From the IMG/VR virus record IMGVR_UViG_3300032247_000062, positions 1-24,721 of that record: 24,721 bases of DNA. One strand, written 5' to 3'. The translations under genes and the position numbers were made by a program. Below are positions 1-24,447 of this stretch, piece after piece (position 1 is the stretch's first letter; every line of letters begins with the position of its first letter). The notes beneath the pieces were generated by a model that was not told where the DNA came from, did not search any database, and worked only from the letters and a program-made list of their open reading frames with translations. The DNA comes from a virus. Its lineage: Duplodnaviria > Caudoviricetes.

Positions 1-560
1 GATTTCTTTTTCGTGCGGTGACTCGATGTCTCCAGAAAAAAGCGAAGAGCCGAGGCGCACTTCAAGCGCAGGTTTAAGAGCTTGAGGAATATCAAGCGGC
101 ACCGATTGCCCTAAGGTTTTCCAAAGCGCGCTCAGCGCAGGCTTAGCTTTCTCATCACCAAACGCCGTATTGATCATAGCTTCCGGTAGCGCTTTGAGCA
201 GGAAGCCAACCTCGTAAGGGATCGGAATTTTTATCCAGTTTTCTTTGGTCAGGCCCAGCGTTGGCACCCACCAGTTGCCGTAGCGCTCCTCAGGTTTAGC
301 GCGTTTGTAGTCCTCATCATCTTGCATGATCGCGGCATATGCCACAGACGACATAGCCAGCATCGTTGCCCGTGCTGCGAACCGTTGAGCAACCTGAAGT
401 TTGTCGGCACCCGGCAACTGCCCCCGCATAGCGCGATACAGAACGTCCAGACCTTGAACCTGCGAGTGCATAAACGGCGTCAGACTTGCCAGCAAATACA
501 TACTGGGTGACGTACCCCGGCGGCTAAAGTTCATCGACTCAAGCGTACGCATCAGCGCCT
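1..560 (-). other. LPD38-like C-terminal region of the giant protein (boundaries approximate)
   Basis: Motifs MNFSRRG..., LTPFMHSQVQGLD and EERYGNWWVP...WIKIPIPYEVGFLLKALPE resemble the LPD38 region of large polyvalent phage proteins. Recognised by eye. Confidence 0.65.
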
Positions 561-3500
561 GCTGGTGGGACATTCCCTTCTTGATCGAGTCTTCGTAGAT
601 CACCTGCCGGGTAGCAGCATCGGACTGCTGGGCAACTGTGTCGAGCTTAGAGAACGCGCGTTGCAGGCTCCACTTGCCGGCGGTGAGGTCTTCTAAGAAC
701 TTGGTCATGTCGCGGGAGTCGCCCACCAAGATGTTGCTGCTGGTTGCACCTGCACGCTGAAGCCGCTGCGCGGTGGTGTCTTTGCCGGTGGCCATTTTAG
801 CCAGCGTAGAAAATGAATCAAGGATCGGGATCGTGTCCGTACCATTCTGCACCCACGCCGAGACAGGATCGCGCACAAGCTGGCGGAACATGTAGAGCGG
901 ATTGCGAACCGTAAATTTGCGGAAGATATCTCCCGGCACACCGAGCATGCGCACAATCGCAGGCATTGCAAGCTTAATACCTTCAAGCCCTTCAACAATC
1001 ATCTGCGCCGGGATACCATACATGTCTGTATCAATGATGGCGTGGTGCTCCACACCATGGACCCGGAAGTGAACTACGTTGTCCGTATACGGACCCTTGG
1101 ACGCTACGATCCGACTGGCAATCCCTAGATCTTTGAGCACAAACGCCGTGTCTTTAACGGTCTGATTGCGCATCGCCATGTTGATCAGCATACTGGTGTT
1201 TTGTACAGCACTCGTAAACACCGGCAGGATTTGTTCGCTGTCGCCAAGCAGTTCTTTCAGGCGGGGTTCGCTCTTGATGTTGCCGATACGGATCGAGCGG
1301 CGCTCGTCACCCGTCTCCATGCGGATGTTGCCATCCTTATCCACGCGATAGAAAGGCACGTAGGTAATACTCTTGAGTTCCGCAGCCTTCTGCTTGGACA
1401 TAGTGCCGGTCTGAACAAGGAAGTCCAGCAGCCCAGCGTTGTACGCCTGATAGATTTTCTCGGCTTCTTTGAACGCAGCCTCATCGGTTTTGTTCTGCTT
1501 CAGGTGCGCGAGAACTTCTTTGTATTCGTTCTCAGCCTCGACCGGGTTATCAAAGCGCAGTTTGTTCCAGCCAACTTGTTCAGCACGCTTGCCTGCCAAG
1601 TACACAGTGAATGCGTTCTCGCGGTCTTCTTCTTTGTAACCCTTGGCTTTCTCCAGCGCCTGCGCCATACCAATTAATGTTGGGCCGTTCGCATCATTCT
1701 CGTAGAAGTATTCCGTGCCGGCCTTGGTCTTTTCGCTGCGAAGACGCGGTGGCCCACTGGTAACGGTCTGCCCAACAATATCGCTGCGCTGCTGACCAAA
1801 GCGCAGTGCATACATCAGGTTCTGTGCGCGCAAGGCATCAATCTTTTTATCGTCTAGACCCTTTTTGACCACCTCTTCCAACGCAGCATACTGATCAAAT
1901 ATGCGCTGACGAAGCTTCAATGCTCGGGTACTAGTCTTGTCTTTGATCCCAGCCATCGTAGCATCCCGGCTACTTGCACCCGTCATTCCGGTGTAAAGCG
2001 ACATCAGATCATCGGCAGCACTTGTGCGCTGAGCAACGACAGACTTGGTGGGTTTGCGTGAGCGGTAGAGGACATCGCCTGCCTTGGCTGTTGGCTTACC
2101 TGTTGGTGCAATCTTTGCCAGCGCCTGCACAGTCTCGCTTGGCTTGGTGGTTACGCCGTGTACGTACTTGTGCGAGTCGCGGATCAGGCGAATGATCTCG
2201 GAGTCACCGATAGGAGCGCCCTTCCAGATGCCCCACTGCCGCAGCTTGGTGCGGATCAGGTTTACCAAGCGGTTCATCCAAGTCAGGGACACATCCTTCT
2301 CGGCACGCTCGGCGATGCTCTCCTCGGTCGCTACGTCCTGCGACAAGTTTGGATTACGCTGCATCCGAGCGTCAGCCTCGGCACGGATCTGTTTGCTGTT
2401 CTGATAAATCGCGCGCATCACTGCCGGGTATTGCTTGTCCAGCACCCCACGCAGACCAAAGTGACCAACTAGTTCGTGCGCGATCGTCTTGCCAGCATCT
2501 GCGCTATCAATCAGATTGTCGCCAACCATGTAGATGGTTTTCGTTGGCGGGTGATACATACCCGGCGCGCTCTGCGTACCATCACGTTCCATCTGCGCTT
2601 GGATCTCGGGCGGCAGTTCACTAACCGACTGCACAGTCTTAATCCCCGGAGCTACTGGCAACTCGCGAAACGGTGCAATCTGGGCATCAACATCGGCAAC
2701 GCGCATCCCAACCGTAGGCTTCTCGCCCTTCTCACGGAACATTGCGTTCTGTGCATCTTGCGCCAAACTGCCTTGAGCAGGCGCGGCTTCCGGCTTAACT
2801 TGCGGTTGTTCAACAGCCTCGGCAGGCTTAATTGTTGTGCGGATTTCGCCTACTAGATCCGGGCTGGTTGTCCAGTTATTCCACGATGCCTTGAGCTGTT
2901 GCAATTCGGCAATACGGCGCTTAACTGCTTCGGGGTCTTTGATGTCGATCCCTTCGGCGGCGGCGAGCTTGGGGTTTTTGCTAGCACCCGTGATAGCACT
3001 TAGCCGTTGACCAACCTCACGCTGCTTTTGCGTAGCGATCTTAGCCATCTCTTGGGCCTCGAGCATGGCGCTCTCATCAAACCCAAACATATCAGCCATG
3101 CCGCCTTCGGCGGGTTTGGGCGCAATCACTTGGACCGCGCGCATTAGGTTGAGCGCTTCGGCAGCAGACTTGTTCTGCGCGGCTTTGATTGCAACCGCTT
3201 GGATTCGCGCATCATTTGGCGCCTCAACGGCCACGGTTGCAGCCAGATCATCACTAACTTGTTTAGCGCGGTGGGCAGCGATCAGTTCTGGGCTACCGTT
3301 CGTAGCGATCTCGATAGCCTCTTCGCCTTTACCGCGCGTCAACCCGCGAGCATCGGCGTCTTCTTTTGAAAGCTGTGCGCCTTGGAAGTAGTTGACGTAG
3401 TCGGCTACAGTGCCTTGACCGTCTCGGATATTGATTTCCGCATCCATTGTTGCTGCTTTCTTTTGATCAAACCCGGCGGCTTCATCAAAGATCTGCGCGT

Positions 3501-5919
3501 CAATTGTTTGCCGACCCGAGCGCTTGGCCAGATCCCAACGGTGGCGTCCAGAAATAATCTCCATGTTGCCATCGAGGCGACGCCATAACTGAATGGGCGC
3601 TACGCCGTAGTCGGCAAATTTGCCTTTGAGTGGTTTAACGACACCTTCAGCATTCGCTTCCGCTTTGAACTGCGGCACATCTTGAGATAGCTTAAGTTCA
3701 TTGACCGGAACCTTGACTACCGGAACACCTTCAATTGCGTGCTGGACTGGGCCGGCAGGCGGAACTTCTGCCTTTGGCGTTTCCACCTTCGGTACTTCAG
3801 GCGCAGCCGCTACTTCAGGCGCAGCCGGTGCTTCTTTTATAACTTCGCGTTTGTTGCCTTTTAGTGGCGTGACTACATTGGCTTTTTCCAAGTCCATCAG
3901 CAGTTGCGCTGCGACTTGGCGTTTGACGTTAAGGCCCTGTTCAAGATGCGTGATGTTGGCTTTGCCGGTGTCGCGCACAAACTTCGTGGCGCGGTCCAGA
4001 TCCACATCCCCAAACATTTCCATCGGTGTGGGTAGATCAAATGGCGCATTCAGATCGGCCACAGACCTAGCCCCAAACATCTCATAGGGCGTAGGGAAGT
4101 TGTACGGCGTGATTGATGGAGGCGGCGCTTCTTTAGGCGCAAGCTCTTCAGCCGCAGGCATTTCTGTTACGGGCGGCATTGTGAACGGAGCTACTTCAGG
4201 CTGTTCAGCAACCGGAGTGCGGGAAGGCCGGCCCTCGACAAGTGCACGCAACTGTTGAAGCTTGAGCAGTTTTTCTGCTGGCTTACGCATAGCGGGCAAA
4301 TCGCCCTTAGCTTTATCGTATTCCGCTTGTGCAGTGGCAATTTTTTTATCTAGGGTAGCAGCGGTTTCTGTTGTGCCGCCAGCAGCCTCGACAGTCTTAC
4401 CAAGTTCGTTCAGATTTTTAGATAGCGCTTCCCACTGATCGTGCAGGGCAGTAGCTTCTTCAGGCGTTGCCGTTTTTGCTGCCGCATCTAGTTGATCACG
4501 CTGCTGGAACAGCGCGTCATACTGATCCATCAACTCCAAGGCTGTTGGAGGTGCGGGCGGTGCCGCAGGCGTAACAGGTACAGCCGCAGGCTGCGTTGCC
4601 TGACGCTGGGCAACCAGCGGTTTGATTAGGTCTTCGCGGGGCTTGTACGCATCATGTAGCTCTTTAATTCTTGCCGTTAGGTCTGCTGATTGCTCCCGCA
4701 AACCTGCCGAAGTTTCTTCCCATTCAGCGTACGCTTGTGGGTTTTTCTTTTTGTTTGGTTCGCTTTGCTTTATGGCCTGCGTTAACTTAGCGCCTTCTTC
4801 TTTAGCTGCGATGTACTCGTCGTGCAGTTTGAGTAAGTTTTCTGGCTTGTTCTTTTCCGCTTCTTCCGCAGCAAACGCAGCGTCTGCTGCTTGTTTCTTA
4901 CGTTCAGCAATCTCGCCGCGTGCGCCACTGCGCTCACTAATCCGACCTACGCCGCCCAATGGGGACAGCAACCCGGCCTGATAAGCAGCGCTCCCGTACT
5001 CAGCCAATGCTTCGTCGTTCATTAGCGGCAGGCCAGCCTGCGCGCGCTCAAGTATCTGCTGTGTAATCTCTGTCGGTATCTCAACCGTACCCTTGGCCGT
5101 GCCCTTGAGCAGTGTGCCGGCGCTTACTTCGCCCCTGCTTAGCTTTGGCAACAGCCTTTCTGATGCTAGCTTCTCTAATTCTTGCGCAGACTTCTTAGCT
5201 ACCTGCTCATCGGTAAAGCCCATCAAGCGCCCAACCAACCCCTTGCCCAGCAACAGCCGATCAGTAAAAACATCGAGCGCGGCAATCGGAACAGCCGTGC
5301 CATATGCGGCTAGCGGGTTTACATCGACAGGCTTACCTTCGGCAATCTGAGCGCGAGCTTGCGCTTCCAAGTTTGCCCCGGCTGTTGGGACATACGAAGA
5401 TAAAAACTGCCCAACCCCAGCGCCAATCCCAGCACCAACCCCCGCACCAACAGGCCCAAGGAATCTACCCGCCATAGCCCCTGCGCGAGCACCTGCCCCC
5501 ATCGAGGCTAGCTGCGGAACCTGCTCAGCAATCGCATACGGAACTTGACCTAGCGCTTCTCCAGCGGCAGACAACACGCCGTCTTTCTGATATGCCTGCT
5601 TTACTTTTTCTAGCGATACTTGGCTAGGACGAGCTTTCTCAATCTCTTCCATGCGGGCAATGCCCGCCTTGGCTGCTTCGTCACCGCCGCCTAGACCTGT
5701 ACGGAATTGCGAACCGTATCTCTGCGCCCCACCGATAAGCGCAGACCCAAGGCCAGTCTTTGGTGCAACTTCAGGAAGCTTCGGCGCTAGTGACTCTACA
5801 GGACTAAGCCCAAACGCTTTGGGATACTTTTCAAACGCCACGGCCCAAGCGTCTTCTGGTTTCTCCCCTGCTTTTAAAGGGAAGTACCCACCATCAGGAA
5901 GCTGAATATATTGCGGCAT
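1..5919 (-). CDS. Giant polyvalent internal virion/ejection protein, 3'-truncated by the window (>=1973 aa)
   Basis: ATG at 5919-5917, 2 nt after the upstream TAA. My translation begins MPQYIQLPDGGYFPLKAGEKPEDAW and stays open to base 1 (...DIESPHEKEI); it is absent from the ORF track because no stop lies in the window. Contains a Gly-zipper segment (GPVGAGVGAGIGAGVG) and the domains listed separately. Confidence 0.93.
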   Translation of the reverse strand, partial: MPQYIQLPDGGYFPLKAGEKPEDAWAVAFEKYPKAFGLSPVESLAPKLPEVAPKTGLGSALIGGAQRYGSQFRTGLGGGDEAAKAGIARMEEIEKARPSQVSLEKVKQAYQKDGVLSAAGEALGQVPYAIAEQVPQLASMGAGARAGAMAGRFLGPVGAGVGAGIGAGVGQFLSSYVPTAGANLEAQARAQIAEGKPVDVNPLAAYGTAVPIAALDVFTDRLLLGKGLVGRLMGFTDEQVAKKSAQELEKLASERLLPKLSRGEVSAGTLLKGTAKGTVEIPTEITQQILERAQAGLPLMNDEALAEYGSAAYQAGLLSPLGGVGRISERSGARGEIAERKKQAADAAFAAEEAEKNKPENLLKLHDEYIAAKEEGAKLTQAIKQSEPNKKKNPQAYAEWEETSAGLREQSADLTARIKELHDAYKPREDLIKPLVAQRQATQPAAVPVTPAAPPAPPTALELMDQYDALFQQRDQLDAAAKTATPEEATALHDQWEALSKNLNELGKTVEAAGGTTETAATLDKKIATAQAEYDKAKGDLPAMRKPAEKLLKLQQLRALVEGRPSRTPVAEQPEVAPFTMPPVTEMPAAEELAPKEAPPPSITPYNFPTPYEMFGARSVADLNAPFDLPTPMEMFGDVDLDRATKFVRDTGKANITHLEQGLNVKRQVAAQLLMDLEKANVVTPLKGNKREVIKEAPAAPEVAAAPEVPKVETPKAEVPPAGPVQHAIEGVPVVKVPVNELKLSQDVPQFKAEANAEGVVKPLKGKFADYGVAPIQLWRRLDGNMEIISGRHRWDLAKRSGRQTIDAQIFDEAAGFDQKKAATMDAEINIRDGQGTVADYVNYFQGAQLSKEDADARGLTRGKGEEAIEIATNGSPELIAAHRAKQVSDDLAATVAVEAPNDARIQAVAIKAAQNKSAAEALNLMRAVQVIAPKPAEGGMADMFGFDESAMLEAQEMAKIATQKQREVGQRLSAITGASKNPKLAAAEGIDIKDPEAVKRRIAELQQLKASWNNWTTSPDLVGEIRTTIKPAEAVEQPQVKPEAAPAQGSLAQDAQNAMFREKGEKPTVGMRVADVDAQIAPFRELPVAPGIKTVQSVSELPPEIQAQMERDGTQSAPGMYHPPTKTIYMVGDNLIDSADAGKTIAHELVGHFGLRGVLDKQYPAVMRAIYQNSKQIRAEADARMQRNPNLSQDVATEESIAERAEKDVSLTWMNRLVNLIRTKLRQWGIWKGAPIGDSEIIRLIRDSHKYVHGVTTKPSETVQALAKIAPTGKPTAKAGDVLYRSRKPTKSVVAQRTSAADDLMSLYTGMTGASSRDATMAGIKDKTSTRALKLRQRIFDQYAALEEVVKKGLDDKKIDALRAQNLMYALRFGQQRSDIVGQTVTSGPPRLRSEKTKAGTEYFYENDANGPTLIGMAQALEKAKGYKEEDRENAFTVYLAGKRAEQVGWNKLRFDNPVEAENEYKEVLAHLKQNKTDEAAFKEAEKIYQAYNAGLLDFLVQTGTMSKQKAAELKSITYVPFYRVDKDGNIRMETGDERRSIRIGNIKSEPRLKELLGDSEQILPVFTSAVQNTSMLINMAMRNQTVKDTAFVLKDLGIASRIVASKGPYTDNVVHFRVHGVEHHAIIDTDMYGIPAQMIVEGLEGIKLAMPAIVRMLGVPGDIFRKFTVRNPLYMFRQLVRDPVSAWVQNGTDTIPILDSFSTLAKMATGKDTTAQRLQRAGATSSNILVGDSRDMTKFLEDLTAGKWSLQRAFSKLDTVAQQSDAATRQVIYEDSIKKGMSHQQALMRTLESMNFSRRGTSPSMYLLASLTPFMHSQVQGLDVLYRAMRGQLPGADKLQVAQRFAARATMLAMSSVAYAAIMQDDEDYKRAKPEERYGNWWVPTLGLTKENWIKIPIPYEVGFLLKALPEAMINTAFGDEKAKPALSALWKTLGQSVPLDIPQALKPALEVRLGSSLFSGDIESPHEKEI
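2160..2650 (-). other. Zincin-like metallopeptidase (MPTase-type) domain in the giant protein (boundaries approximate)
   Basis: APGMYHPPTKTIYMVGDNL...TIAHELVGHFGLRGVL, with HExxxH at 2478-2461, followed by ATEESIAERAE supplying a candidate third ligand. Confidence 0.75.
3421..3720 (-). other. ParB/Srx-like domain in the giant protein
   Basis: VVKVPVNELKLSQDVPQFK...APIQLWRRLDGNMEIISGRHRWDLAKRSGRQTIDAQIFDE...DAEINIRD matches the ParB N-terminal pattern (PI.v.....eii.G.hR..A...G...i.a.i ... eN..R). Confidence 0.8.
3838..4008 (-). other. FtsK-gamma-like winged-helix domain in the giant protein
   Basis: DVDLDRATKFVRDTGKANITHLEQGLNVKRQVAAQLLMDLEKANVVTPLKGNKREVI aligns by eye with the FtsK gamma consensus (D.ly..A..fV.etgkaSis.lQr.l.igynrAarlie.lE..givs...g...ReVl). 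Confidence 0.7.
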
Positions 5920-5921
5920 GC

Positions 5922-8156
5922 TTAACGACCGTAAAGCGGCGCTTTACCGGGGGTACTGGTAGTGGGGATACCGCCAGCAATTCCTTGATTAAAAAGACTG
6001 TAGGCACGTTTATTTTCTATGAATTCTTTTATCCAAGCTTGCTTATCTTTCATAGGCGGAAGTACTGCCCCCGTTGTTGCGCTCGCTTTCAAGTGATCGA
6101 GTGCTTGCTTTTCGTATGCCGCCAGCGCAGTATCAATATCATTGACACTGCTCATATACTCGACACCTCTACGAATTTGCGTTGAATTCGGGACTGTGCC
6201 GGGTAAGGCACCGCCAAGCTCTGCATAAAACTTAGCTTGTGCTGATGGTAGATTCGCCGCAAACAGCGCCGCTTCTTTCGTTGCTTGGATCTGCGCATTA
6301 GCCCGTGCGTTTGCCCCACGCTCATTTGTGGCAGCAATATCCCTCTGTACATCCGCACTAAACTGCGTTCTCTTGGCGGCTTCTATGCTTTGCGCAGCTT
6401 GGTCAAAAGCCCCTATTGCAGCTTGACCTTCTAGACCAAATGCGTACTTAGCGAGAAGTGCTTTGTTTTGGTCCATGCTGGTATTAAGATCATCCCCACG
6501 CTGACGCAAAACAAGCTCGCGATCAAAATCCCCACGCTCAGCCGCATTTTGTGCAGCTTCAATGGTGGTGCGCAACTGTAGCCGTTTCTGTGCAAGTTCT
6601 TTGAACTCTTTGTTGGACTGCTGAAGTTCTTTGGCACCGACAGTTGCGCCTGCCCCCACATTACGAAGGAAAGATCCCAGTCCTTTGCCGCCGTATGGCG
6701 ACTCCATCATCTTGAATCCCGCCATCATAAGCGCCATGCCTTTGGCTTTTTCTTTTTCACCTACTTCATTGAACTCTTCAGTATCAAGTCGCTTACTCAA
6801 TTCTTGGAATGGGGCAGCAGGTCTATTAGTTCTTGCAAAACTTAACGTGTCGGCTTGGCGTTCACGCGCAGCCTCAGCAATTCTATCCTGCTGCGCATTA
6901 AGTTCTTTAGTGTCAAAAAACTGTCTGGCTCGCGTTTGTGCTTCTTCAACCGTAAGTGGCTTAGGTATTTCCAAAGTAGGCGGTCTGCCTGCACCTACTC
7001 CAGCGCCGGCACCCCTACTTGCTGCCGGAGCGTTCCCCGCACTAAGCAATCTTTGAAGATCCGCGTATGTTTGTGCCGGCGGTGCTGGGACCGCAGGGGC
7101 AGTTGTTTCTGCGGGTTCCCGATTTCCTAAAGCCCTATCTTTAAATGCCCCTTGTCCGGGCATCATAGGCACCACACCGCCACCCGGCACCGCACGAATC
7201 CGCCCAGCCTCAAGATCGGTAGCAAGCTGTCTAAGATCTGGCAAACGGTCCGTTGCGTTTCCAAGGTTTGTTCTTGTCGGTGCAACGCCACTGCTTGGCG
7301 ATTGCTCTCGGGTTATTAACGGATTGCGGTCGTTCGGTCCAATTGCTGGTGTTTCACCAGTCATCCGAGGGTTTGGGATCGGCGTGGGCATCGGCATTGC
7401 CTCGCCAAAATTCTGCGCTGTAAATTGCGGAACGGCAATACCGCTAGTTATTGCAGACGTATATGGCAACTGTCTTTGCTGTGGGGCATTTTCAGCCGCT
7501 CTCCGCTGTTGAATCAGTGACTCAGTCAGTTCGGGTGGATATCCAAGCGATCTAGCCTGCGCACGGAGTGCGTCTTCGTCCAAACCCCCAACAGCCATGC
7601 GAATCGCACCACCATCGGCATAGCCAACAGCCTCGTCCGCATCCGCATACCCAGCGATCCCACCGTCAGCCATGTTCTGAATATTCCTAGCAGGCAGACC
7701 GGCTATGCCTTGCGGGGCCGCGCTGGGACCGGAAGGTGGAGGCATCTGCGGAGCAGGTGGCATAGGCGGAGGCATCTGCATACCCAGAGGCGGAGCCTGC
7801 GGTGGCATCTGCATACCCGGAGGCGGAGCCGGAGGCATACCCTGCGGTGGCATACCCTGCGGTGGCATCGGGCCTTGTGGCCCTCCGGGTGGTGGCATGG
7901 GCGCCCCACCTTGCCCACCAATAGACTGCATAACTTGCTGCGCTACGGTCGGGGGTTGCTGCCCACTCAACATTGCCAACGCTTTGGAGTGCATATCCTT
8001 GGCGTCATTGACCGCTTGGTTGGCAAGGCTCAACCGAATAGCATCGTCTTGGTGCATCTGCGCATACTGGCGCAGCATTTGTAAGGCTTGTGGCGAACCG
8101 ACACGCGCTAGTTTTTGAAGCTGAGCTTCTTCTCTGGCAATGTTCTCATGCAGCAT
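5922..8156 (-). CDS. Putative ejection/internal virion protein (744 aa) with Pro-rich linker and coiled-coil C-terminal half
   Basis: Long ORF coupled to its neighbours. N-terminal helical segment, then an MPPQG/MQMPP low-complexity tract, three xAxGG motifs and an Ala/Gln/Glu-rich helical region. Function inferred from position. Confidence 0.75.
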   Translation of the reverse strand: MLHENIAREEAQLQKLARVGSPQALQMLRQYAQMHQDDAIRLSLANQAVNDAKDMHSKALAMLSGQQPPTVAQQVMQSIGGQGGAPMPPPGGPQGPMPPQGMPPQGMPPAPPPGMQMPPQAPPLGMQMPPPMPPAPQMPPPSGPSAAPQGIAGLPARNIQNMADGGIAGYADADEAVGYADGGAIRMAVGGLDEDALRAQARSLGYPPELTESLIQQRRAAENAPQQRQLPYTSAITSGIAVPQFTAQNFGEAMPMPTPIPNPRMTGETPAIGPNDRNPLITREQSPSSGVAPTRTNLGNATDRLPDLRQLATDLEAGRIRAVPGGGVVPMMPGQGAFKDRALGNREPAETTAPAVPAPPAQTYADLQRLLSAGNAPAASRGAGAGVGAGRPPTLEIPKPLTVEEAQTRARQFFDTKELNAQQDRIAEAARERQADTLSFARTNRPAAPFQELSKRLDTEEFNEVGEKEKAKGMALMMAGFKMMESPYGGKGLGSFLRNVGAGATVGAKELQQSNKEFKELAQKRLQLRTTIEAAQNAAERGDFDRELVLRQRGDDLNTSMDQNKALLAKYAFGLEGQAAIGAFDQAAQSIEAAKRTQFSADVQRDIAATNERGANARANAQIQATKEAALFAANLPSAQAKFYAELGGALPGTVPNSTQIRRGVEYMSSVNDIDTALAAYEKQALDHLKASATTGAVLPPMKDKQAWIKEFIENKRAYSLFNQGIAGGIPTTSTPGKAPLYGR
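7834..7868. repeat. 15-nt tandem repeat encoding MPPQG
   Basis: ggcataccctgcggt occurs twice in tandem plus a partial third copy. Confidence 0.9.
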
Positions 8157-8165
8157 GACAGTACC

Positions 8166-11100
8166 TTAGTTCATTCTTGCAAGAATAAGTGAAGACAATC
8201 CACGCGGCTGACGAATCATACCGCCTTTTTTAGCACTCTTAAACAGATTAGCCGCACCAATTGCTGCCGTACCAAAACCAGCCGCTTGCGAAGCCAGACT
8301 TGGCGCTTGCTGATATACCGCCTGAGTTTGCTGGGTCAACGGCACTCCACGCAATACGTTCGACATCTGCCCAATCTGTTGGAATGGGAAGTTCTGCTGA
8401 TTAAGGAAGTCGTTATAGTTCTGCGTAAGCTGCTGTTGTTGGTAATTCTGCGCCTGCACGCCCATCTGGTTCTGGGCGTTGGCAATGTTCATAGCTTGCT
8501 GGTTGTACAGGCCGCTCAAATTGCCATAGTTCTGCATGCCCTGCATGCCGGCGTTAAGCGCTTGTAATCCGTAACCCGCACCATATTGATTGGCCTGCTC
8601 TTGCAACTGATTAGCAGCTTGACCGTATTGCGCCCTATTTGCTGCCGCTGCCATGCTCTGACCGTAGCCGTACTGATTGGCCTGTTCTTGCTGCTGCTGT
8701 GTAGTAAGACCTGCCTGCTGATTAGCCAACTGCGCCTGCAATGCCTGCTGGTTGTACATCTGCTGTACGCCCAGATTAGCTGCAAGATTCTGCTGGCCAA
8801 CAGTAAGTCCGGCTTGTTGATTTGCTAGGTTTGCTTGCTGGCGAAGCTGCGCGTTTTGCAGATTTGCCGCTTGGTTGAACTGTCCCTGAGTTAAACCGTA
8901 CTGACCGGCAAGCGCTTGATTAGAAAGCGCAAATTGATTTGCGGCCTGTTGATTAGCGACGTTAGCTGCTTGCCCAAACTGACCTTGCTGCAAACCATAC
9001 TGACCGGCAAGCGCTTGATTAGAAAGCGCAAATTGATTTGCAGCCTGTTGATTAGCAGCATTAGCTGCTTGATTCATTTGCCCCTGCTGCAAACCGTACT
9101 GCGCACCGTACTGCTGATTGGCCAAAGCCGCCTGCTGCTGATTAGCAAGATTCGCCATGGACATTTGCTGGTTCATCGAGCCTTGCTGCAAACCGTACTG
9201 AGCGCCATACTGCTGGTTATTCGCCGCAGCCTGCTGCGCAAGCTGGGCATTCTGCAAAGCAAGCGCCTGATCCATTGTGCCTTGCTGCAAACCGTATTGA
9301 CCCGCAAGCGCCTGATTAGCGAGCGCTGTTTGTTGTTGATTGGTAAGGCTGGCCAACCCCATTTGCTGGTTCATCTGGCCTTGTTGTAGCCCGTACTGTG
9401 CGCCGTATTGCTGGTTGTTAGCTGCGGCCTGTTGTGCAAGCTGAGCATTTTGAAGTGCCGTCGCTTGGTTCATTGAACCTTGCTGCAAGCCATACTGGTT
9501 TAATGCGGCTTGGTTAGCAGCGTTGGCTGCTTGGCTCATTGAACCTTGCTGAAGACCGTACTGCGCGCCGTATTGTTGATTGTTAGCGGCAGCTTGCTGC
9601 GCAAGCTGAGCATTCTGAAGCGCCATGGCCTGATCCATCTGCCCTTGCGTCAGACTAAATTGGTTTAGTGCGCCTTGATTGGCGGCGTTAGCAGCTTGCT
9701 GCTGCGCAGCGTTTTGCAGATTTACTTGTTGATTAAGCTGCGCTTGCGTGAGACCGTATTGCCCCTGTAGCGATTGATTAGCAAGTTGTTGCTGTTGCAG
9801 TAGTTGTGCGTTTTGCAGTGCTGTGTTGTACTGCTGGGTCTGATTAAATTTGCTTGTATCAATACCCGCAGATTGATTGGCGAGTAAAGCTTGCAGTCCG
9901 GCTTGTTGATTTAATTGCTGCGCAGTCAGCCCGGTCTGTGCGCCAAGGCCCTGAGTCTGAAGCAACGCGCTTAGATTCTGAACGCCGGTTTGTTGCTGAA
10001 CCTGTTGATTAGCCAGAGCCGCTTGAAGTGCTGCTTGTTGCTCGGTATTAAACTGCCCTTGTGCTGACTGGAATGCTGACTGCAAACCTTGGGCTTGGAT
10101 GTCGCCTTTCTGAGTAGCCAGATTGCGTGCAGCTTCAGCATTCTCAATAGCTTGGCGTGTGCCCCCAAAAGCCCCAGCTTGCGCAAACCCAGCGCCGCGT
10201 TTAGTCGAGGCAATATCTGCTTGGCGTTGTGCTTCACGTTGCTGAATGTCCACCACACTTTGCATGTAGGGGGACATGAATGCGTTAGCTGCTCCGGGCT
10301 GCGTGAATGAACCGGTGCCTACATTTGCCGCCGCCTGCATCTGCAAACGCTCAAGTGGCAATGCTTGTACTCGTTCAGCAAAGGCACGCTCAAACCCGAT
10401 ATTTTGCGGTGTGTAATTAAGCTGTTGGCCTTGATAAAGAGGAACTTCGCCAAGCTGACTGTAGCCTGCCTGCGCTGCCTGCATTTGAGCCGCTTGAGCA
10501 AGCTGCGTTCTTTGCGCTTGTGCAGCCGCCATCTCTGGCGAAGCCCCAAGCTGCGCGGCGTTCATTGTCGCTGCACTACCTAGCTGTGTTTGTGCAGCCT
10601 GCGCAGCCTGCATTTCTGGCGAAGCCGCAAGAAGAGACGCCACCCCTGTTTGCGCGGCTGAAGTTGGTGCGTTACTTAGACCAGTGCGTGCGGCTTGTGC
10701 AGCACGCATTTCAGGAGAAGCATTAAGAAGCGAAGAAACCCCAGTCTGGCCGCTAACAGTAGGCGCCATGCCCATCTGCGCAGCCTGCATCGCTTGAGAC
10801 GTAGCTGTTGGAGAAGCCCCCATCTGCGCAGCCTGCATTGCTTGAGACGTAGCTGTTGGAGCATTTCCCAAATACGCAGCATTCGCCATAGCCCCGCGCA
10901 CATTTTGCGGGCCTTGCATCTGGAAATACTGAGCGTTCTGCGGACTTACCCCTTGGTAGCTAAACTGCCCCGGCTGATAAGCTCCCGGCGCTGCATACTG
11001 ATTGCCATAAGCGGTTGGGTTGTATTGCGACTGGCCTGCCTGCGCAGCCAAGTTGTACATGTTCTGAAGCGAGTTACCTGCCTGAGCGCCAAGGCCCATG

Positions 11101-11351
11101 CCTCCAAGTGTGTTGTATGCCTGCTGACTAAGAACGTCTGGCCCAGCAATCCGCTGGCCTTGGTATGTCTGATAAGGTTTAAGCCCGGATACTTGCGGTT
11201 GACCATTAGAGTCAAGGAGTAACTGCCCGTTAGAGTCCCGCTTATAGTCGTAAATTGCCCCTTCAGTAGCGCCAAGCATGCGCTCAACCTGCGCACGCGC
11301 ATAGTCAGGGATTGACGTTTGTGACTGGATAATCTGTTGTGGATCTGCCAT
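8166..11351 (-). CDS. Gln/Asn/Ala-rich repeat protein (1061 aa), putative DNA-transfer/ejection conduit
   Basis: Long ORF with a central FMSPYMQSVV...AGAFGGTRQAI segment flanked by two repeat arrays, and a C-terminal hydrophobic segment (SLASQAAGFGTAAIGAANLF). Confidence 0.8.
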   Translation of the reverse strand: MADPQQIIQSQTSIPDYARAQVERMLGATEGAIYDYKRDSNGQLLLDSNGQPQVSGLKPYQTYQGQRIAGPDVLSQQAYNTLGGMGLGAQAGNSLQNMYNLAAQAGQSQYNPTAYGNQYAAPGAYQPGQFSYQGVSPQNAQYFQMQGPQNVRGAMANAAYLGNAPTATSQAMQAAQMGASPTATSQAMQAAQMGMAPTVSGQTGVSSLLNASPEMRAAQAARTGLSNAPTSAAQTGVASLLAASPEMQAAQAAQTQLGSAATMNAAQLGASPEMAAAQAQRTQLAQAAQMQAAQAGYSQLGEVPLYQGQQLNYTPQNIGFERAFAERVQALPLERLQMQAAANVGTGSFTQPGAANAFMSPYMQSVVDIQQREAQRQADIASTKRGAGFAQAGAFGGTRQAIENAEAARNLATQKGDIQAQGLQSAFQSAQGQFNTEQQAALQAALANQQVQQQTGVQNLSALLQTQGLGAQTGLTAQQLNQQAGLQALLANQSAGIDTSKFNQTQQYNTALQNAQLLQQQQLANQSLQGQYGLTQAQLNQQVNLQNAAQQQAANAANQGALNQFSLTQGQMDQAMALQNAQLAQQAAANNQQYGAQYGLQQGSMSQAANAANQAALNQYGLQQGSMNQATALQNAQLAQQAAANNQQYGAQYGLQQGQMNQQMGLASLTNQQQTALANQALAGQYGLQQGTMDQALALQNAQLAQQAAANNQQYGAQYGLQQGSMNQQMSMANLANQQQAALANQQYGAQYGLQQGQMNQAANAANQQAANQFALSNQALAGQYGLQQGQFGQAANVANQQAANQFALSNQALAGQYGLTQGQFNQAANLQNAQLRQQANLANQQAGLTVGQQNLAANLGVQQMYNQQALQAQLANQQAGLTTQQQQEQANQYGYGQSMAAAANRAQYGQAANQLQEQANQYGAGYGLQALNAGMQGMQNYGNLSGLYNQQAMNIANAQNQMGVQAQNYQQQQLTQNYNDFLNQQNFPFQQIGQMSNVLRGVPLTQQTQAVYQQAPSLASQAAGFGTAAIGAANLFKSAKKGGMIRQPRGLSSLILARMN
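8688..10040 (-). repeat. 41 consecutive 11-aa (hendecad) repeats
   Basis: Unbroken 11-residue register from QQAALQAALAN to QQAGLTTQQQQ. Includes a near-identical 99-nt-period DNA repeat (ctgaccggcaagcgcttgattagaaagcgcaaattgatttgc at 8901 and 9000). Confidence 0.92.
10455..10871 (-). repeat. Array of eight 16-aa and one 11-aa repeats
   Basis: LGNAPTATSQAMQAAQ / MGASPTATSQAMQAAQ / MGMAPTVSGQTGVSSL / LNASPEMRAAQAARTG / LSNAPTSAAQTGVASL / LAASPEMQAAQAAQTQ / LGSAATMNAAQ / LGASPEMAAAQAQRTQ / LAQAAQMQAAQAGYSQ. Confidence 0.92.
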
Positions 11352-11360
11352 GACTATTCC

Positions 11361-12527
11361 TTATGCGGGCAGCAGGCTTTCTGCATTTGTGTCGGTAGCT
11401 ACGCGGTGTTTGCCGGTTGTTTTGCTTCTTGCGCGCTGCACGCGGTCCATCATTGCGTATAGTTTACGCGCACCAGCCTCGGTCGATCCATTGCCAATCT
11501 CAGACACGATGCGTGCCGGTACAACAAACTCACCATCAGCTAGCCGCGCAGGTTGGCGATCCCCAATCATTGCCGGGATGTTGTCAGATACACCATCACC
11601 GGGGCCGCGAAGCAAGCGCCCGCCATCCGAGTAACCACCCAGCGTCCCCAAACCGCCTTGGTTGAAAGCAACAACACCGCCTGTCGCAGCTTTGTATGGC
11701 TCGGGCACATCGTATGTATCGTTGAAGTAGCGCGCTTCCCCTTGCCCAGTGTATGGCGTTGGGTTTTGTTTGCGGTTGAGAATGATCGGGCGGATCATGG
11801 CTTGAGGGGTAACGCTGCCTAGCGTTGGCATTTTGGTCGTCTGATTCGCTTGGATACCCGCCATGATTGGGAGTGCCGTAGCTGCTAGCATACCCGCGCC
11901 TTTCAGTGTGCTGCCGCCACCAAGCGTGTTGATTGCCGACATTGGGTTGTTGACCGCAGATGAGAAGCCGCTACTTAACTTTTCATACGGTGTCATGTTG
12001 GCTGCTGCGGCTTGCCCTTGTTGCGCGGCATATTCCGCCGCCATTTGTGGGCTTGCCGAACCTTCCGTTGCTAACGCAGCGTCGTACGCGGATTTTGTAG
12101 CTGCCTGTGAAGCGGCATCTGCACCAATATTAGACAGGCCGCTGCTAAGACTTGCCCCACCGTACGCACCCAACCCAGCCATAAGCCCTTTCTGTAAGCT
12201 CCCCGTAGCTAAAGCGCCAATCCCGCCCGTAATCAACCCCGCCGCAGCCGCATTAGATATACCGCCCAGCGCCGTCCCAAGCCCCGGCACAAATGTATCA
12301 AGTGCAAACCCGGCCAGCGGCGCAGCAATCGGTTTAATCGCCTTCCACGCCTGACTGAAGATGTTGGCTTCTGGCAGACCTGTGTGTGGGTTAATAGTTA
12401 GCGAGCCACCCTGCGCCATGGCCAAGCGTTGGAGTCCGTGAACTTCATCTGGCGTTACGTGCATAAGCATCGAGTCGCCGTTGCGACCATAGCCAGCCAT
12501 GTGATGGGCAAGATTATGTAGGCTCAT
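11361..12527 (-). CDS. Putative ejection protein (388 aa) with Gly-zipper hydrophobic region and a C-terminal GEFV domain like that of tape-measure proteins
   Basis: N-terminal GRNGDSMLMHVTPDEV...GGSLTINPHTGLPEA motif. Hydrophobic Gly/Ala helices. C-terminal GPGDGVSDNIPA...LADGEFVVPARIVSEIGNG. Confidence 0.8.
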   Translation of the reverse strand: MSLHNLAHHMAGYGRNGDSMLMHVTPDEVHGLQRLAMAQGGSLTINPHTGLPEANIFSQAWKAIKPIAAPLAGFALDTFVPGLGTALGGISNAAAAGLITGGIGALATGSLQKGLMAGLGAYGGASLSSGLSNIGADAASQAATKSAYDAALATEGSASPQMAAEYAAQQGQAAAANMTPYEKLSSGFSSAVNNPMSAINTLGGGSTLKGAGMLAATALPIMAGIQANQTTKMPTLGSVTPQAMIRPIILNRKQNPTPYTGQGEARYFNDTYDVPEPYKAATGGVVAFNQGGLGTLGGYSDGGRLLRGPGDGVSDNIPAMIGDRQPARLADGEFVVPARIVSEIGNGSTEAGARKLYAMMDRVQRARSKTTGKHRVATDTNAESLLPA

Positions 12528-12529
12528 GA

Positions 12530-13456
12530 TTACGTCGCTGTGTTACTAATTAAAATGCCTTGCAAAATTAAACCAACAGAGTGTGTTCCTGATGCGGTTG
12601 AAAATTGCCATTGGATGTCTGTTTTTTGTGTGTATGGAAACGGGTTTACTCTAGGAACTTGATATCTTTGGTCCCAAGCTGTTTGCAATACTGTTAGAGT
12701 AACTGGGTTTGTTTGAGCGTTGTTTGTGCTTTTAACTTGGTAGTTAATTGCGTTTCCGGGCGCGGCATCTCCGTTAAACGCATTAATGGATATCAAGTAC
12801 ATTGTGTATCCATTTGGTACAGAGTACACGGCAGCTTGCGACCTTCCCACCCCTGTTGAAATTTGCGAGTAAGTAACCCCACCATTCTTGGCTGTAATTG
12901 TTCCTACGTTAGTAGTTTGACCAGTCCCTGTACTAGTCATAATCATGTTGTTAATGCGGAGAAACTGATTGGTTGTAGTTACGCCTGTTACGCCGTTTAG
13001 CGTTACTGTTTCTGTTATGGCATCCCAACTTGAATTAAGTCCGCTAATAAGTATTGTTGCTCTAGTGTTGTCGGACGCTGAAGTGCTGGCAAGTGTCATT
13101 GTTACAGCAGATGCCGGGAAAGCATATTGAGTGGTCCCCGTTAATTCCCACAATGTATAAAGGGTTGTCTTAACAGAATCAGAAAACGCAAAAATATTTA
13201 CTTGGCTTGCACCAGTAACTTTTCCTCGGGCGACTTGCAGTGCCCAATCCGCAGATTGCGAAGATTCTGTACTGATAGGAACTGGGGATGATGTTGCCAT
13301 TAGCTGCCCGAGTAAATTATCAATCTGGTTGAAGTACAACCGCAGGACGTTGTTGAGTTGGTCAATATAACGCGGGTCGTATTCTTTCGACGCATCCGGC
13401 AAGCGCGGGGCAACAATTCTATTAAGCTCGTAATCTGATGTAATAACGTAGCTCAT
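12530..13456 (-). CDS. Virion protein (308 aa), possibly tail needle/spike: helical N-terminus plus beta-rich C-terminal domain
   Basis: APRLPDASKEYDPRYIDQLNNVLRLYFNQIDN helical N-terminus and a Thr/Ser-rich beta domain. Sits between the hub-like gene and the ejection genes, as P22 gp26 does (synteny inference). Confidence 0.6.
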   Translation of the reverse strand: MSYVITSDYELNRIVAPRLPDASKEYDPRYIDQLNNVLRLYFNQIDNLLGQLMATSSPVPISTESSQSADWALQVARGKVTGASQVNIFAFSDSVKTTLYTLWELTGTTQYAFPASAVTMTLASTSASDNTRATILISGLNSSWDAITETVTLNGVTGVTTTNQFLRINNMIMTSTGTGQTTNVGTITAKNGGVTYSQISTGVGRSQAAVYSVPNGYTMYLISINAFNGDAAPGNAINYQVKSTNNAQTNPVTLTVLQTAWDQRYQVPRVNPFPYTQKTDIQWQFSTASGTHSVGLILQGILISNTAT

Positions 13457-15567
13457 CAGCGCCTACCATCATTGCGAATATCGATTCGGGGAGCGCCAAG
13501 CTGCCACTGAAGCCCAAGCTGGTTTCCTTCAATCTTAAACGCCATCTGGCGCCCACGCACGCGGGTGTAGATCTGTCCAGTATACGCTTCGATTGGGTAT
13601 GTAGCAGTGCGGGTAGATGTGGCGTAAGCGTTGCCTCCCACTGATAGAGGACTATTGTACCCGGAACCCGAGTTCTGCATAGGGTACAGCGTCATGGTTA
13701 CTTGCGGGCTTGCCGCTGTAGACCCGTCAAATTTAAGATCCGGCAGCATCCGCCACACAAACCCAAAGTTGTGCCCGTCGTCAATATCAAATTCGGACGA
13801 AAGAATGTAGGACGAAATGGGTTGACCTGTAACGGAATCGGTACAGTCGTTTACGCCGTTCTCATGCCACACAAGATTGTTTGAGTAAGTAGCTGCGATT
13901 GGGTAGTCGTTCAATCCGCTATCAATCCAAGCCGTGCGTCCCATCGTGCCGTAGTACCAGACGTTTTCCAGATAATTGTAGATGACGTACTTATCTACAA
14001 CTGTGCTATTACCGGAACAATAGAACCACCAGACTTCATTGAAGCCTTCGTTGGTGCTGGAGAAAACTTGGTCAAACTGGCTTTTGTTGATGTTCTCAAA
14101 TACATACTGGCGCAGATCACAACTGAGCGTCTGCACCCGACCGTCATACTTGTAGAACTTATCTACGCCCATCCAGTACGCAACCCCCGCAGCCAACGCA
14201 GTGGCGTTCGGCCCAGCAATCGAGATGTTGTCTCCAAGAAGTTGAGAACTCCAGACGTAAGGTGGCCCCAGATACTGCAAGGAATATACGGAACTGTCGG
14301 TAAGTACAACTATTTCTTGGCGATTCTGTATAGTCGTGACGATCTTGGAGCCGTGCGACAACCGCACACTACCCGCCTGATTAGTAATGGCCGGATACCA
14401 AGTAGTCAAAGAATCCTGATCTGACCAACGAATCAACATTGGGTCCAATGTAGTGCTGTCAATATCATTGGTGCCAAACACCAAGATAAACCGGCTGGCG
14501 TCTGACACAGTGAATGTATTTTGGTACAGCGGCGCGTAGCCATCAGATCCGCCAATGCTCGATAGCGGATACCCGCGTGCAGAAACGCTATGTGTGCCGG
14601 TCTGTGTACCGGAAGTATTAATTGCCGCCCCACCATAAGTAGCAGACAAGTTACAAGTAAACCCACTTGAGTTAATTACGTAATAGACCGTACCCGGCAC
14701 CAACCCTGTGGGCAAGTATCCGGTAGTAGTCAGCGTAATAGCCGTGCCGTTGGCTAAAGAATATATAAGCGTCAACACGGCAGGGCTGGCAATTGTAATT
14801 GTGCACGTAGTGCTTTGATAGCCGGTGTTAGCGTCCCAGTAATAGAGCGGTGACCCGCGAGGGCCGTATAACAAGTTCTGCCCGTAGTTCATCTGATTCC
14901 AAAGCTGCAATGGAATCGTAGTCGTTCCGCCATTACCCCATGATCCGGCGCTCCAAGCTCCAGCCCCCCAGCCTACAAGCGGTATTGCAAACTCGGGTCC
15001 GACGTTAGTTTGGTATGAGATGTATACTGTTCCGCCGCCCGTTGTGCTAGAGGATGCTGTGCCAGCAAGCGTGATGCTGTATGTATTAGTAGTCAGATAC
15101 GTGACTACATATTCTCCGACTGGGACGGTTACTCCACCTACCGTGGGAGCAGAACCAGAATAATAGATTGTTATGTAACTGCCGTTCGTAGCGCCATGAC
15201 TAGTGTCGGTGATTGTTACCGTCGTGTTGCCACCAGAATTGCTGGCTGTTGATGTGGCGAACGGGTTAGTCAGCGTGCTGGTCTTACGGATTGGGGTGAC
15301 ATCGTAATACGCACCCCCGTTAGAAATGTAGAATTTAAGGTTTGTCCCCACGCCCAGTAGGTTTTGCGCGGTGAGCGTTACCCATGACCAAAGTGATCGG
15401 CAAATTCCTAAAAACGTGCTGCTAGAAATCTGCAGCCAACCGCCAATTTTTTCAGGCGTGCCTTGCCGAAAGCGGATTTTTTCCGACTCGTAGTAACCCC
15501 CTTCGTTGGTATACCGCGTGTTCTCGCGGTTAACCCCCGGTTTAAATAAGAGTTTTTTGAGTGGCAT
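13456..15567 (-). CDS. Tail hub / stabilisation protein-like (P22 gp10 / tubular protein B class), 703 aa
   Basis: Size, position and beta-rich motifs (IRFRQGTPEKIGGW, IRWSDQD, FNEVWWFY, YVIYNYLENVWYYG, RVRGRQMAFKIE). Family assignment is inference. Confidence 0.7.
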   Translation of the reverse strand: MPLKKLLFKPGVNRENTRYTNEGGYYESEKIRFRQGTPEKIGGWLQISSSTFLGICRSLWSWVTLTAQNLLGVGTNLKFYISNGGAYYDVTPIRKTSTLTNPFATSTASNSGGNTTVTITDTSHGATNGSYITIYYSGSAPTVGGVTVPVGEYVVTYLTTNTYSITLAGTASSSTTGGGTVYISYQTNVGPEFAIPLVGWGAGAWSAGSWGNGGTTTIPLQLWNQMNYGQNLLYGPRGSPLYYWDANTGYQSTTCTITIASPAVLTLIYSLANGTAITLTTTGYLPTGLVPGTVYYVINSSGFTCNLSATYGGAAINTSGTQTGTHSVSARGYPLSSIGGSDGYAPLYQNTFTVSDASRFILVFGTNDIDSTTLDPMLIRWSDQDSLTTWYPAITNQAGSVRLSHGSKIVTTIQNRQEIVVLTDSSVYSLQYLGPPYVWSSQLLGDNISIAGPNATALAAGVAYWMGVDKFYKYDGRVQTLSCDLRQYVFENINKSQFDQVFSSTNEGFNEVWWFYCSGNSTVVDKYVIYNYLENVWYYGTMGRTAWIDSGLNDYPIAATYSNNLVWHENGVNDCTDSVTGQPISSYILSSEFDIDDGHNFGFVWRMLPDLKFDGSTAASPQVTMTLYPMQNSGSGYNSPLSVGGNAYATSTRTATYPIEAYTGQIYTRVRGRQMAFKIEGNQLGLQWQLGAPRIDIRNDGRR

Positions 15568-16519: not shown

Positions 16520-16673
16520 TTTTATCCCTCATCTTATTGATGATCTCAAACGCGGACTTGACTTTTTCCTCAAGGACTGCTACCCGCAGATCCAGTTTAG
16601 AGAGCACAACGATAAGCGTAACGATACCCAGAAGCACCGGCCACGCTTTCAAGAAGAGTTCAACTATCTCCAT
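16512..16673 (-). CDS. Small membrane protein (53 aa), holin/antiholin-like; not in the ORF track
   Basis: MEIVELFLKAWPVLLGIVTLIVVLSKLDLRVAVLEEKVKSAFEIINKMRDKNG*. One TM helix plus a coiled coil. It fills the gap and overlaps both neighbours. Confidence 0.8.
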   Translation of the reverse strand: MEIVELFLKAWPVLLGIVTLIVVLSKLDLRVAVLEEKVKSAFEIINKMRDKNG

Positions 16674-17100
16674 CGCCGTGCATCCTTATGTACTCATCTC
16701 GAAGGAACGTCACTTTTTTGCGACCATCGTGTCGCTTGACAACACCTAAAGCTGGCGGGTTATTCAGATACTCAGCCGCGCGTAGGATCAAATCGGGGTC
16801 ATCATCAAAGATACCTAGCGCCGTGTTACAGCGTTTGCACAGAACTCCCCGAACGTCATCCGAATCGTGGCAGTGATCTACTGCAAACTTGTACTGCTTG
16901 AGCTTGAGAGACTGTTGACAAACAGCACAATTATACCCCTGAAGTTTCAAGAGTAGTTCAAAATCTGTTGGGGACAGCCCAAAACGAGAAAGCCGATTTA
17001 CATCGGCTTTGCATCCGCTACAAAGAAAGTAGTCCTTGCGACCGTGAATGATCAGGTCTTCTCTGGCAAACTCGCCAGCACATACAGCGCAAGAAGGCAT
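16660..17100 (-). CDS. Endonuclease VII-family (His-Me finger) nuclease, possibly a free-standing homing endonuclease
   Basis: FGLS..DFELLLKLQGYNCAVC...VDHCHDSDDVRGVLCKRCNTALG...D.DLILRAAEYL, plus an extra N-terminal CxxC...CxxC zinc finger. Confidence 0.9.
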   Translation of the reverse strand: MPSCAVCAGEFAREDLIIHGRKDYFLCSGCKADVNRLSRFGLSPTDFELLLKLQGYNCAVCQQSLKLKQYKFAVDHCHDSDDVRGVLCKRCNTALGIFDDDPDLILRAAEYLNNPPALGVVKRHDGRKKVTFLRDEYIRMHGDGDS

Positions 17101-23796: not shown

Positions 23797-24447
23797 TTAG
23801 GTCACCTTAATCTTAACCTGACCATCACGATAGGCATCACCTCTTTCGAGGCCGTCGCCCAGACGTTTAGCCAGACCCAACGCTTCTTTGTACTTGCCGT
23901 CGTACAGCGCCATCATGTCGGTTTCGCCTTTCATATATGTGTAGGCTTCAACAAGCGTTCCGTACAACAGCACCGTGTCAAAATTATCGCCCAGCCAGCT
24001 AGTTCCCGCAGTAATAATCGACGGTGGATAAAAGAAGTAATGCAACTCCATCGTGTACACAGCGTCTGGAGTTGGCCCAAGGATGAACGTCAGTTCATCT
24101 GCATTACTTGATTGCGGACCAAACAGCGCGTAGTACTTTGGTAGCGCCGTATCTGTCGGGTTTGGATACGCTTCGCGGATGAAGTTAACGTCTTTGTTCA
24201 GCAGGTAAGAGTAGTTGCCAGACGCATCTATTGCGGCCAATGAGTACGAAGACAGAAAATCTGATGGGCAAAACAGATACTTGTTAGCAGGGCTAGTCTG
24301 GCCAGTCACGTTCTTGCGTAGCGACGGGAACTGAATCGTGTTGTAAATGCGTTGTTCCGCCTGCTCAATGAACGTATTCATATCCGCGGTCGGGAACGTG
24401 TTCTCCGTATAGTCAGAGACCGCAGTTACAAGTTGCGTGTAATTCAC
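23797..24447 (-). CDS. Head-tail adaptor-like protein (216 aa)
   Basis: MNYTQLVTAVSDY...FIEQAEQRIY...LGPTPDAVYTMELHYF...LLYGTLVEAYTYMKG. Helical ends with a central beta region, typical of podophage adaptor proteins (inference). Confidence 0.7.
   Translation of the reverse strand: MNYTQLVTAVSDYTENTFPTADMNTFIEQAEQRIYNTIQFPSLRKNVTGQTSPANKYLFCPSDFLSSYSLAAIDASGNYSYLLNKDVNFIREAYPNPTDTALPKYYALFGPQSSNADELTFILGPTPDAVYTMELHYFFYPPSIITAGTSWLGDNFDTVLLYGTLVEAYTYMKGETDMMALYDGKYKEALGLAKRLGDGLERGDAYRDGQVKIKVT

Follow-up and report, generated by a model that had tools for sequence, protein, structure and literature searches.

Why should two repeat arrays within one phage protein match each other unit for unit in mirror order? 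The question is raised by an open reading frame of 1061 aa (positions 8166..11351, minus strand) in a linear record of 24,721 bases, the whole of which is called the window here. Its product, a putative first ejection protein, is related to phrog_4287 and is encoded at the gene position of P22 gp7 and T7 gp14. Beginning at the N terminus, the protein comprises a conserved segment with short predicted helices (aa 1-105, 11037..11351), a variable, proline-containing N arm of 5- and 6-residue elements predicted to be non-helical (aa ~106-350, 10302..11036), an invariant core, MSPY...AGAFGG, with a predicted helix-turn-helix (aa ~351-432, 10056..10301), a variable C arm of 42 in-phase hendecads predicted to be helical (aa 433-894, 8670..10055) and a conserved distal helix with a C-terminal tail (8169..8669), all on the minus strand. 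The conserved ends were delimited by alignments and the core by invariant columns and models; helicity of the C arm is taken from the model of a homologue. The C arm consists of 30% Gln and 0% Pro, and in 27 of its 42 hendecads position 5 is occupied by Asn.

Retranslation bore out the two mirrored arrays of the original prediction. The N array (aa 161-299, 10455..10871, minus strand) is built from aa 161 onwards of units of 16, 16, 16, 16, 16, 16, 11, 16 and 16 residues, of the types A,A,B,C,B,C,D,C,E. Cut at Q[YF][GS]L[TQ]Q, the C array (aa 531-816, 8904..9761, minus strand) has unit lengths of 33, 33, 22, 33, 33, 33, 33, 33 and 33 and the types e,c,d,c,b,c,b,a,a; read backwards, its nine units are of the same types as the nine units of the N array. 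The limits given originally, 537-822, describe the identical 286 aa cut six residues later. Comparison of the unit-similarity matrices of both arrays yielded a Mantel r of 0.72 in mirror order versus 0.07 in parallel order, and the former value was matched by 20 of 100,000 permutations. Partner units are separated by 694-1822 nt, in keeping with matched duplications 0.7-2 kb apart. The coupling extends past both arrays to about aa 106-350 and 433-894, and the C-arm helix has a predicted length of ~69 nm. Thus, the rod length of 43 nm first derived from the 286 array residues, a count that we confirm, is too small for a matched region of ~70 nm.

The arrays are not obviously an assembly artefact, given contigs from two sequencing runs, one of which possibly represents the source sample. 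A Logan contig of that run (X1) showed 0 differences over 9012-11400, and pieces from a second run (X2) matched 10446-10821 with 0 differences and 9042-9441 with 1 difference. A related contig from a further run (X3), which does not reach the N arm, lacks one 99-nt a unit (window 8877-8977). The arrangement recurs in a close relative of 1440 aa (L001) with 17 mirrored units per arm, both short units included, in which even subtypes are mirrored (TATSQ with QFALSN, TAIAQ with QIALAN). Its unit matrices correlated at r=0.79, a value reached by 0 of 100,000 permutations. Among 34 long homologues, 28 beat permutations at p<=0.01 in a per-protein mirror test, although the mirror register ranked first among all registers in only 24 of them.

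The original prediction held that the arms co-vary at about 1:2 among homologues, and this proved to be the case. From a starting set of 472 sequences, 394 contained all three anchors and 336 of these were unique; the 78 dropped sequences lacked the N anchor (41), the C anchor (19) or the core (18). In the 336 unique homologues the length of the C arm equals 2.05 times that of the N arm minus 17 residues, with a deviation of at most 6 aa in 269 and at most 11 aa in 321 proteins. Independent contrasts of the arm lengths correlated at r=0.977, compared with 0.02-0.12 for flanking control segments. In a held-out set from the 50%-identity library, in which 137 of 141 further proteins could be measured, 129 of the 137 fell within 11 aa of the line. 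The protein proper ranges from about 270 to 1440 aa and the predicted stalk from 11 to 120 nm; the variable helix of L001 is ~112 nm longer than in the shortest members. The family is very large, with 11,580 clusters at 50% identity. Some relatives (P0064, P0073) have large N inserts without a counterpart in the C arm. Two marine-type relatives (L199, 4473 onward; L195, 4209 onward) possess charged Glu/Arg/Asp repeat arms, and L199 lies on the 2:1 line.

Comparison of close relatives points to selection on register. The arms of 60 of 108 sister pairs differ in length, and in 51 of these 60 pairs the difference is matched within 6 aa, in N:C steps such as 5:11, 16:33, 21:44, 32:66 and 69:143. 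Not only the size but also the position of the indels is mirrored (rho 0.87 in the 35 pairs with one indel per arm, of 57 aligned); in pairs with multiple indels, size and sign agree between the arms. C-arm lengths modulo 11 fall into two classes, four or seven residues apart, that cover 295 of the 336 proteins. The elementary step is one C-arm hendecad per 5-6 N-arm residues, as read from the sequences. Throughout 139 non-redundant proteins the C arm holds one hendecad phase outward from the core, and Asn occupies position 5 in 66% of the hendecads.

When the N arm was segmented into 5- and 6-mers on the basis of its own sequence, with the number of hendecads and a loose ruler as the only other input, recurrent pairs of N elements and hendecads were seen across lineages. 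The mutual information between elements shows an antiparallel diagonal, with a value of 14.2 for the mirror partner, 11.2-11.4 for its neighbours, 4.7 for the parallel partner and 2.8 after shuffling, all inflated by shared ancestry. By the same ancestry-inflated measure, the central hydrophobic residue of the N element couples most with hendecad positions 1, 5 and 6, and large N residues tend to lie opposite Ala at positions 1, 4 and 8. An alignment of 99 rows (Neff 41) lacked the depth needed for column covariation. The ratio of the arms translates into a rise of 3.05 Å per N residue (1.485 Å x 2.05), as an extended chain would have. As the N arm contains ~8% Pro and much Ala and Gln, a polyproline-II (PPII) conformation is not assured.

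Some distant relatives fall off the 2.05 line, and a search with three of them led to a sister group with a different ratio. It comprised 229 loci including earlier ones, 207 ORFs, 156 anchored sequences and 139 unique ones; since this set was sought on purpose, it makes no statement on prevalence. Long arms were found in 85 of the 139 unique ORFs. In 84 of these the arms follow a ratio of 1.06:1 (r=0.997; 0.998 for contrasts), and 11-residue length steps are absent. The core was recognised in 75 of the 84 at E<1e-5, and synteny is preserved, 80 of 84 having the upstream neighbour. Their arms reach up to 525/630 aa (examples are L209:1252-4134, L221:5001-6155 and L231-L401). Proline makes up 2.9% of their N arms versus 8.4% in the 2:1 group, and Asn 2.5% of their C arms versus 8.8%. 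A mirror-order test was weak in the sister group (median 0.06 versus 0.02), with 32 of 38 proteins favouring the mirror. On a weak core tree, 1:1 and 2:1 types swap about five times. A helix packed on a helix is expected to scale 1:1, and an extended chain on a helix at 2.05:1 if its rise is 3.05 Å. The sister group thus probably pairs helix on helix, with the helicity of its N arm judged from composition.

How do two arms so far apart in the gene keep matched lengths? A mismatch of more than 12 aa was found in 19 of 473 proteins, 16 with an excess in the N arm versus 3 with an excess in the C arm (sign test p=0.004 on non-independent proteins). This predominance of N excess fits the idea that length likely changes through two separate, ordinary events of slippage or recombination, between which a surplus of the N arm would be looped out and tolerated. 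In four near-identical phages (L120-L123), N alleles of 123/149 and C alleles of 236/291 residues occur in matched and unmatched combinations, which are either real recombinants or assembly chimeras. A process at the DNA level that duplicates or deletes both arms jointly, so that the match would be mutational and not structural, would account for pairs such as P0128/P0125, whose proteins are identical apart from matched indels, and for the similar synonymous ages of partner duplications (rho 0.69 in 28 non-independent pairs). However, no mirror-placed inverted repeats were found in register in the DNA (the longest being 27 nt at 70%), the units of 48 and 99 nt have no common sequence, mismatched alleles exist and the ratio switches with N-arm composition. 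We consider such a process very improbable, and the coupled repeat expansion entertained in the original prediction is not needed.

Structure prediction agrees with an extended N arm and a helical C arm. With two family alignments, AlphaFold modelled the N arm as coil, the C arm as helix and the core as a helix-turn-helix turning at GAFGG, albeit with low confidence (pTM 0.28 and 0.30; pLDDT 33-48 in the N arm). The core, model residues 110-176, aligns to two-helix hairpins, and would likely be the hairpin turn and nozzle-docking tip. Sequence and profile searches of the PDB gave 0 matches throughout, Foldseek against the PDB found nothing at E<=0.001 and BFVD matched only uncharacterised phage proteins. 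VIA-align retrieved generic helical hairpins, among which 7ey7_A, considered as a fold match to P22 gp7/T7 gp14, stood at rank 37 (Z 7.8, rmsd 5.5, 98 aligned residues). As the models are of low confidence and these searches found no solved relative, the case for contact between the arms is drawn from evolution. The Gln/Asn/Gly/Tyr-rich units, for instance QYGLQQG, are prion-like, and one-to-one pairing of elements would also be compatible with a beta-solenoid or cross-beta fibre in which the arms form rungs of 5-6 plus 11 residues. Such a fibre is hard to reconcile with a C arm that is free of proline and predicted helical, with length classes 4 or 7 residues apart, which are coiled-coil steps, and with a ratio that equals known rises and becomes 1:1 in the sister group; we give it very little credence. 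The conserved N-terminal segment likely packs against the distal C helix: it pairs with the C anchor by weak mutual information between alignment columns and contains helices at 53-63 and 69-86 in the homologue model.

The full protein of the window matched neither Pfam nor PHROGs. Its affiliation, and with it the predicted identity as an ejection protein, came from ten short homologues, all of which matched phrog_4287 (DNA ejection protein) at E 3e-4 to 3e-21; nine did so at E<=5e-7, the remaining one at 3e-4. A profile of the short members matched phiM5 gp27 (HHalign 99%, E 4e-18, 295 columns). LUZ24 gp53 matches phrog_4287 at 2e-10 and was not significant directly against the short-member profile. 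According to their annotations, phiM5 gp27 and LUZ24 gp53 both occur in phage particles. No direct sequence match to P22 gp7 or T7 gp14 was obtained by Pfam; an atlas lead, PF25688, appeared in 13-18% of clusters at 0.82-0.88 and is taken as a lead only. The protein under study is thus related to phrog_4287, and it is likely a first-ejected virion protein. Cultured members of phrog_4287 (phiM5 gp27, LUZ24 gp53 and Pa223 gp56) are 313-468 aa long. The full length of phiM5 gp27 is homologous to the short members, with small upstream gene families in common. Pa223 gp56 (313 aa), tied to the phrog_4287 relatives by size and genus, is a virion protein proposed to be a gp14-like outer-membrane channel; the accessible part of its description mentions no variable strand-on-helix stalk.

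The gene neighbourhood is consistent with this identity. All on the minus strand, a 744-aa gene at the position of gp20/gp15 (5922..8156, role by position), a gene of more than 1973 aa with an LPD38 domain at the gp16 position (1..5919) and a conserved upstream neighbour of 388 aa (11361..12527) accompany a 703-aa virion structural protein (13456..15567, phrog_3287 at E 6e-58), by size and position likely the nozzle or hub, and an SU10-type adaptor (23797..24447, PF24175 at E 4e-22), which marks a short-tailed phage. Putative fibre genes, a lysis cassette and two smaller genes after the nozzle are also present, and an Endonuclease VII gene lies within the lysis/tail region (window 16660-17100). 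Gene order around the hairpin gene is conserved among relatives, many of which encode a protein of 134-158 aa immediately upstream. Of 11 small upstream genes tested, 2 matched a GNAT Pfam entry and 4 the families of LUZ24 gp54 or phiM5 gp26, two genes located just ahead of the first ejection gene of their phages. In T7 and P22, an acetyltransferase-family gene is located ahead of IVP-B, according to the accessible text of PMC4819975. The hairpin gene accordingly occupies the position of IVP-B, past the nozzle and GNAT genes and ahead of two large helical ejection genes; the window lacks the small upstream gene and has two extra genes past the nozzle.

Several variations of the locus were seen. 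An unrelated DDxxD-motif protein (phrog_21390) replaces the small upstream gene in L039:4067-4519. In L010, L011, L044, L093 and many of the P sequences, the hairpin gene runs into a C-terminal extension of 500-700 aa where other phages have the separate next gene, which we read as gene fusion. A motif (A/K)xGG(I/V/L/M), possibly a processing or packaging signal, occurs three times close to the N terminus of the 744-aa protein (window 5922-8156) as well as in the 388-aa protein (11361-12527), at the C-terminal end of the hairpin protein (8166-8230) and at the fusion junctions of relatives.

Beside these observations on mirror order, 2.05:1 coupling, 11-residue steps, matched indel positions, family and gene position we place a reading that we consider probable: the first-ejected virion protein would be a fold-back stalk with mirror-locked arms, several copies of which form a tube from the nozzle to the outer membrane. 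The chain would fold back at the conserved core, bringing both termini to the same end, and the extended, probably PPII-like N arm would run antiparallel along the Gln/Asn hendecad helix. The Asn stripe together with small residues at hendecad positions 1/4/5/8 might provide a groove for the strand of the same or a neighbouring subunit. In the tube, Gln-rich helices would line the lumen, braced by the N arms. On the model of P22 gp7*, the tip would be docked in the nozzle while the C terminus inserts into the outer membrane. The most hydrophobic 19-mer, starting at aa 1019, is a candidate outer-membrane segment with a modest mean hydropathy of 1.08. In this arrangement the stalk would extend an extracellular ejection channel, to ~70 nm in the phage of the window and by as much as ~100 nm within the family, and its length would likely be tuned to the distance bridged outside the cell.

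The closest functional models are P22 gp7* and T7 gp14, both described here from the accessible portions of the sources. P22 gp7* folds back, with a fingertip wedged in the hub, its C terminus in the outer membrane and an extracellular channel (bioRxiv 10.64898/2026.09.03.749273), and in T7 the nozzle contains gp14 as a hairpin of two helices (PMC11784390). Hydrogen bonds of Gln and Asn are known from this type of protein (bioRxiv 10.64898/2026.09.03.749273, PMC11784390), and the gp14-like proteins reviewed have 181-240 aa with little size variation (PMC8954989). In contrast to gp7 and gp14, which consist of two helices throughout, the window family has an N arm predicted as coil and 2.05:1 scaling; antiparallel helices like those of the ~200-aa model proteins are predicted for its core alone, and the 1:1 sister group probably has them as well. 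Moreover, the gap between hub and membrane measures only ~6 nm in P22 (bioRxiv 10.64898/2026.09.03.749273), whereas the 70-110 nm proposed here are unprecedented and would have to be traversed by the next ejection proteins.

As the function is deduced from the family label and the position of the gene, and phiM5 gp27 is annotated as tailspike/chaperone-bearing, the strand-on-helix hairpin could instead serve as a ruler, a spacer, an internal scaffold or a periplasm-spanning tube. We hold this to be unlikely: a conserved ejection operon holds the gene, the DNA tube of phiX174 H is likewise formed by Gln-lined hendecad helices, and a stalk range of 11-120 nm fits poorly with spanning the periplasm. 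A second alternative is a zipper or spring, in which a helix bundle shoots out first and the N arm zips along it, the force piercing or pulling the envelope instead of the arm merely bracing a tube. Both termini are set at one end by the topology, the N arm alone is predicted to be unstructured, and the geometry would be comparable to the leash in the groove of class I fusion proteins. With the turn fixed at the nozzle, however, zipping would leave the rod length unchanged, and the sister group is coupled without an extended arm, which makes a zipper quite improbable.

Lengths of neighbouring genes were compared with that of the stalk, uncorrected for kinship. That of the upstream neighbour, ~240 to 1090 aa, was unrelated to stalk length (rho 0.03, n=58), the downstream gene correlated at rho 0.48 (n=23) and the 308-aa gene at rho -0.50 (n=36, including some spurious ORFs). 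The summed lengths of putative fibre genes, hand-read in 16 of 20 regions plus the window and with putative roles, fall with stalk length (rho -0.55). Nothing in these values indicates that the gap is determined by long fibres. Metagenome-assembled genome bins of relatives pointed to many phyla and yielded no usable host assignment.

The original prediction knew of no description of such an arrangement, which overstates its novelty, as the principle has precedents in other proteins. In the streptococcal antigen I/II proteins SpaP and BspA, an Ala-rich helix and a Pro-rich PPII chain intertwine to a stalk of more than 50 nm, with the arms flanking a central domain and, in BspA, an asparagine seam (accessible parts of PMC7732690, PMC3178794). 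In the window family a PPII chain may bind a helix in a similar way; the ratio gives 3.05 Å per N residue, and the Asn stripe stands at 66%. In contrast to the window protein, antigen I/II is an unrelated bacterial adhesin with the helix at the N terminus and forms a monomeric fibril. Its repeats reportedly measure 82 and 39 aa. The window protein has the reversed arm order, a step of 11:5.3 residues, sparse Pro and, presumably, an oligomeric tube. A-V-P-C order, LPXTG anchor and PxxP pockets are missing from this phage gene product, which has no Pfam match; it would work like an antigen I/II stalk and is not a member of that family.

Chemoreceptor hairpins vary in length through symmetric paired indels (accessible part of PMC5907407). 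These are helix-helix structures with 7:7 heptads in few ancient classes, unlike the 2:1 phage family, which differs between near-identical phages. The phiX174 H tube consists of hendecad/heptad helices with a Gln/Asn-lined DNA lumen (accessible part of PMC7354561). It differs in having one helix per subunit, a length of 17 nm and no bracing strand. A literature search covering mainly openly available main texts brought up no phage ejection protein whose mirror arms are coupled; PMC9509320 and PMC13434306, as far as consulted, contributed nothing further.

Bridging of the envelope by short-tailed phages is known from few models, with a first ejection protein of ~200 aa that is nearly invariant. 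The family presented here varies this component eight-fold in register, even between near-identical phages, and is a clean example of indels evolving in pairs, in which the 2:1 and 1:1 groups serve as a geometric control for each other. If the reading is right, hundreds of natural examples would pair an extended chain with a hendecad helix, a rare motif that is useful for design. With somewhat less than even confidence, we propose more generally that aquatic podophages build their ejection tube from a telescoping two-arm module, adding a hendecad and a brace of 5-6 residues per step, and that the sister group achieves the same with helix on helix. If this is true, such tubes would cross a capsule or surface layer of 10 to over 100 nm without a long tail, the thickness of an uncultured host's envelope could be deduced from the stalk length encoded in the phage sequence, and the element pairs would represent a natural code for strand-on-helix nanotubes. 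Tube length would then be an evolvable host-range trait that is predictable from sequence.
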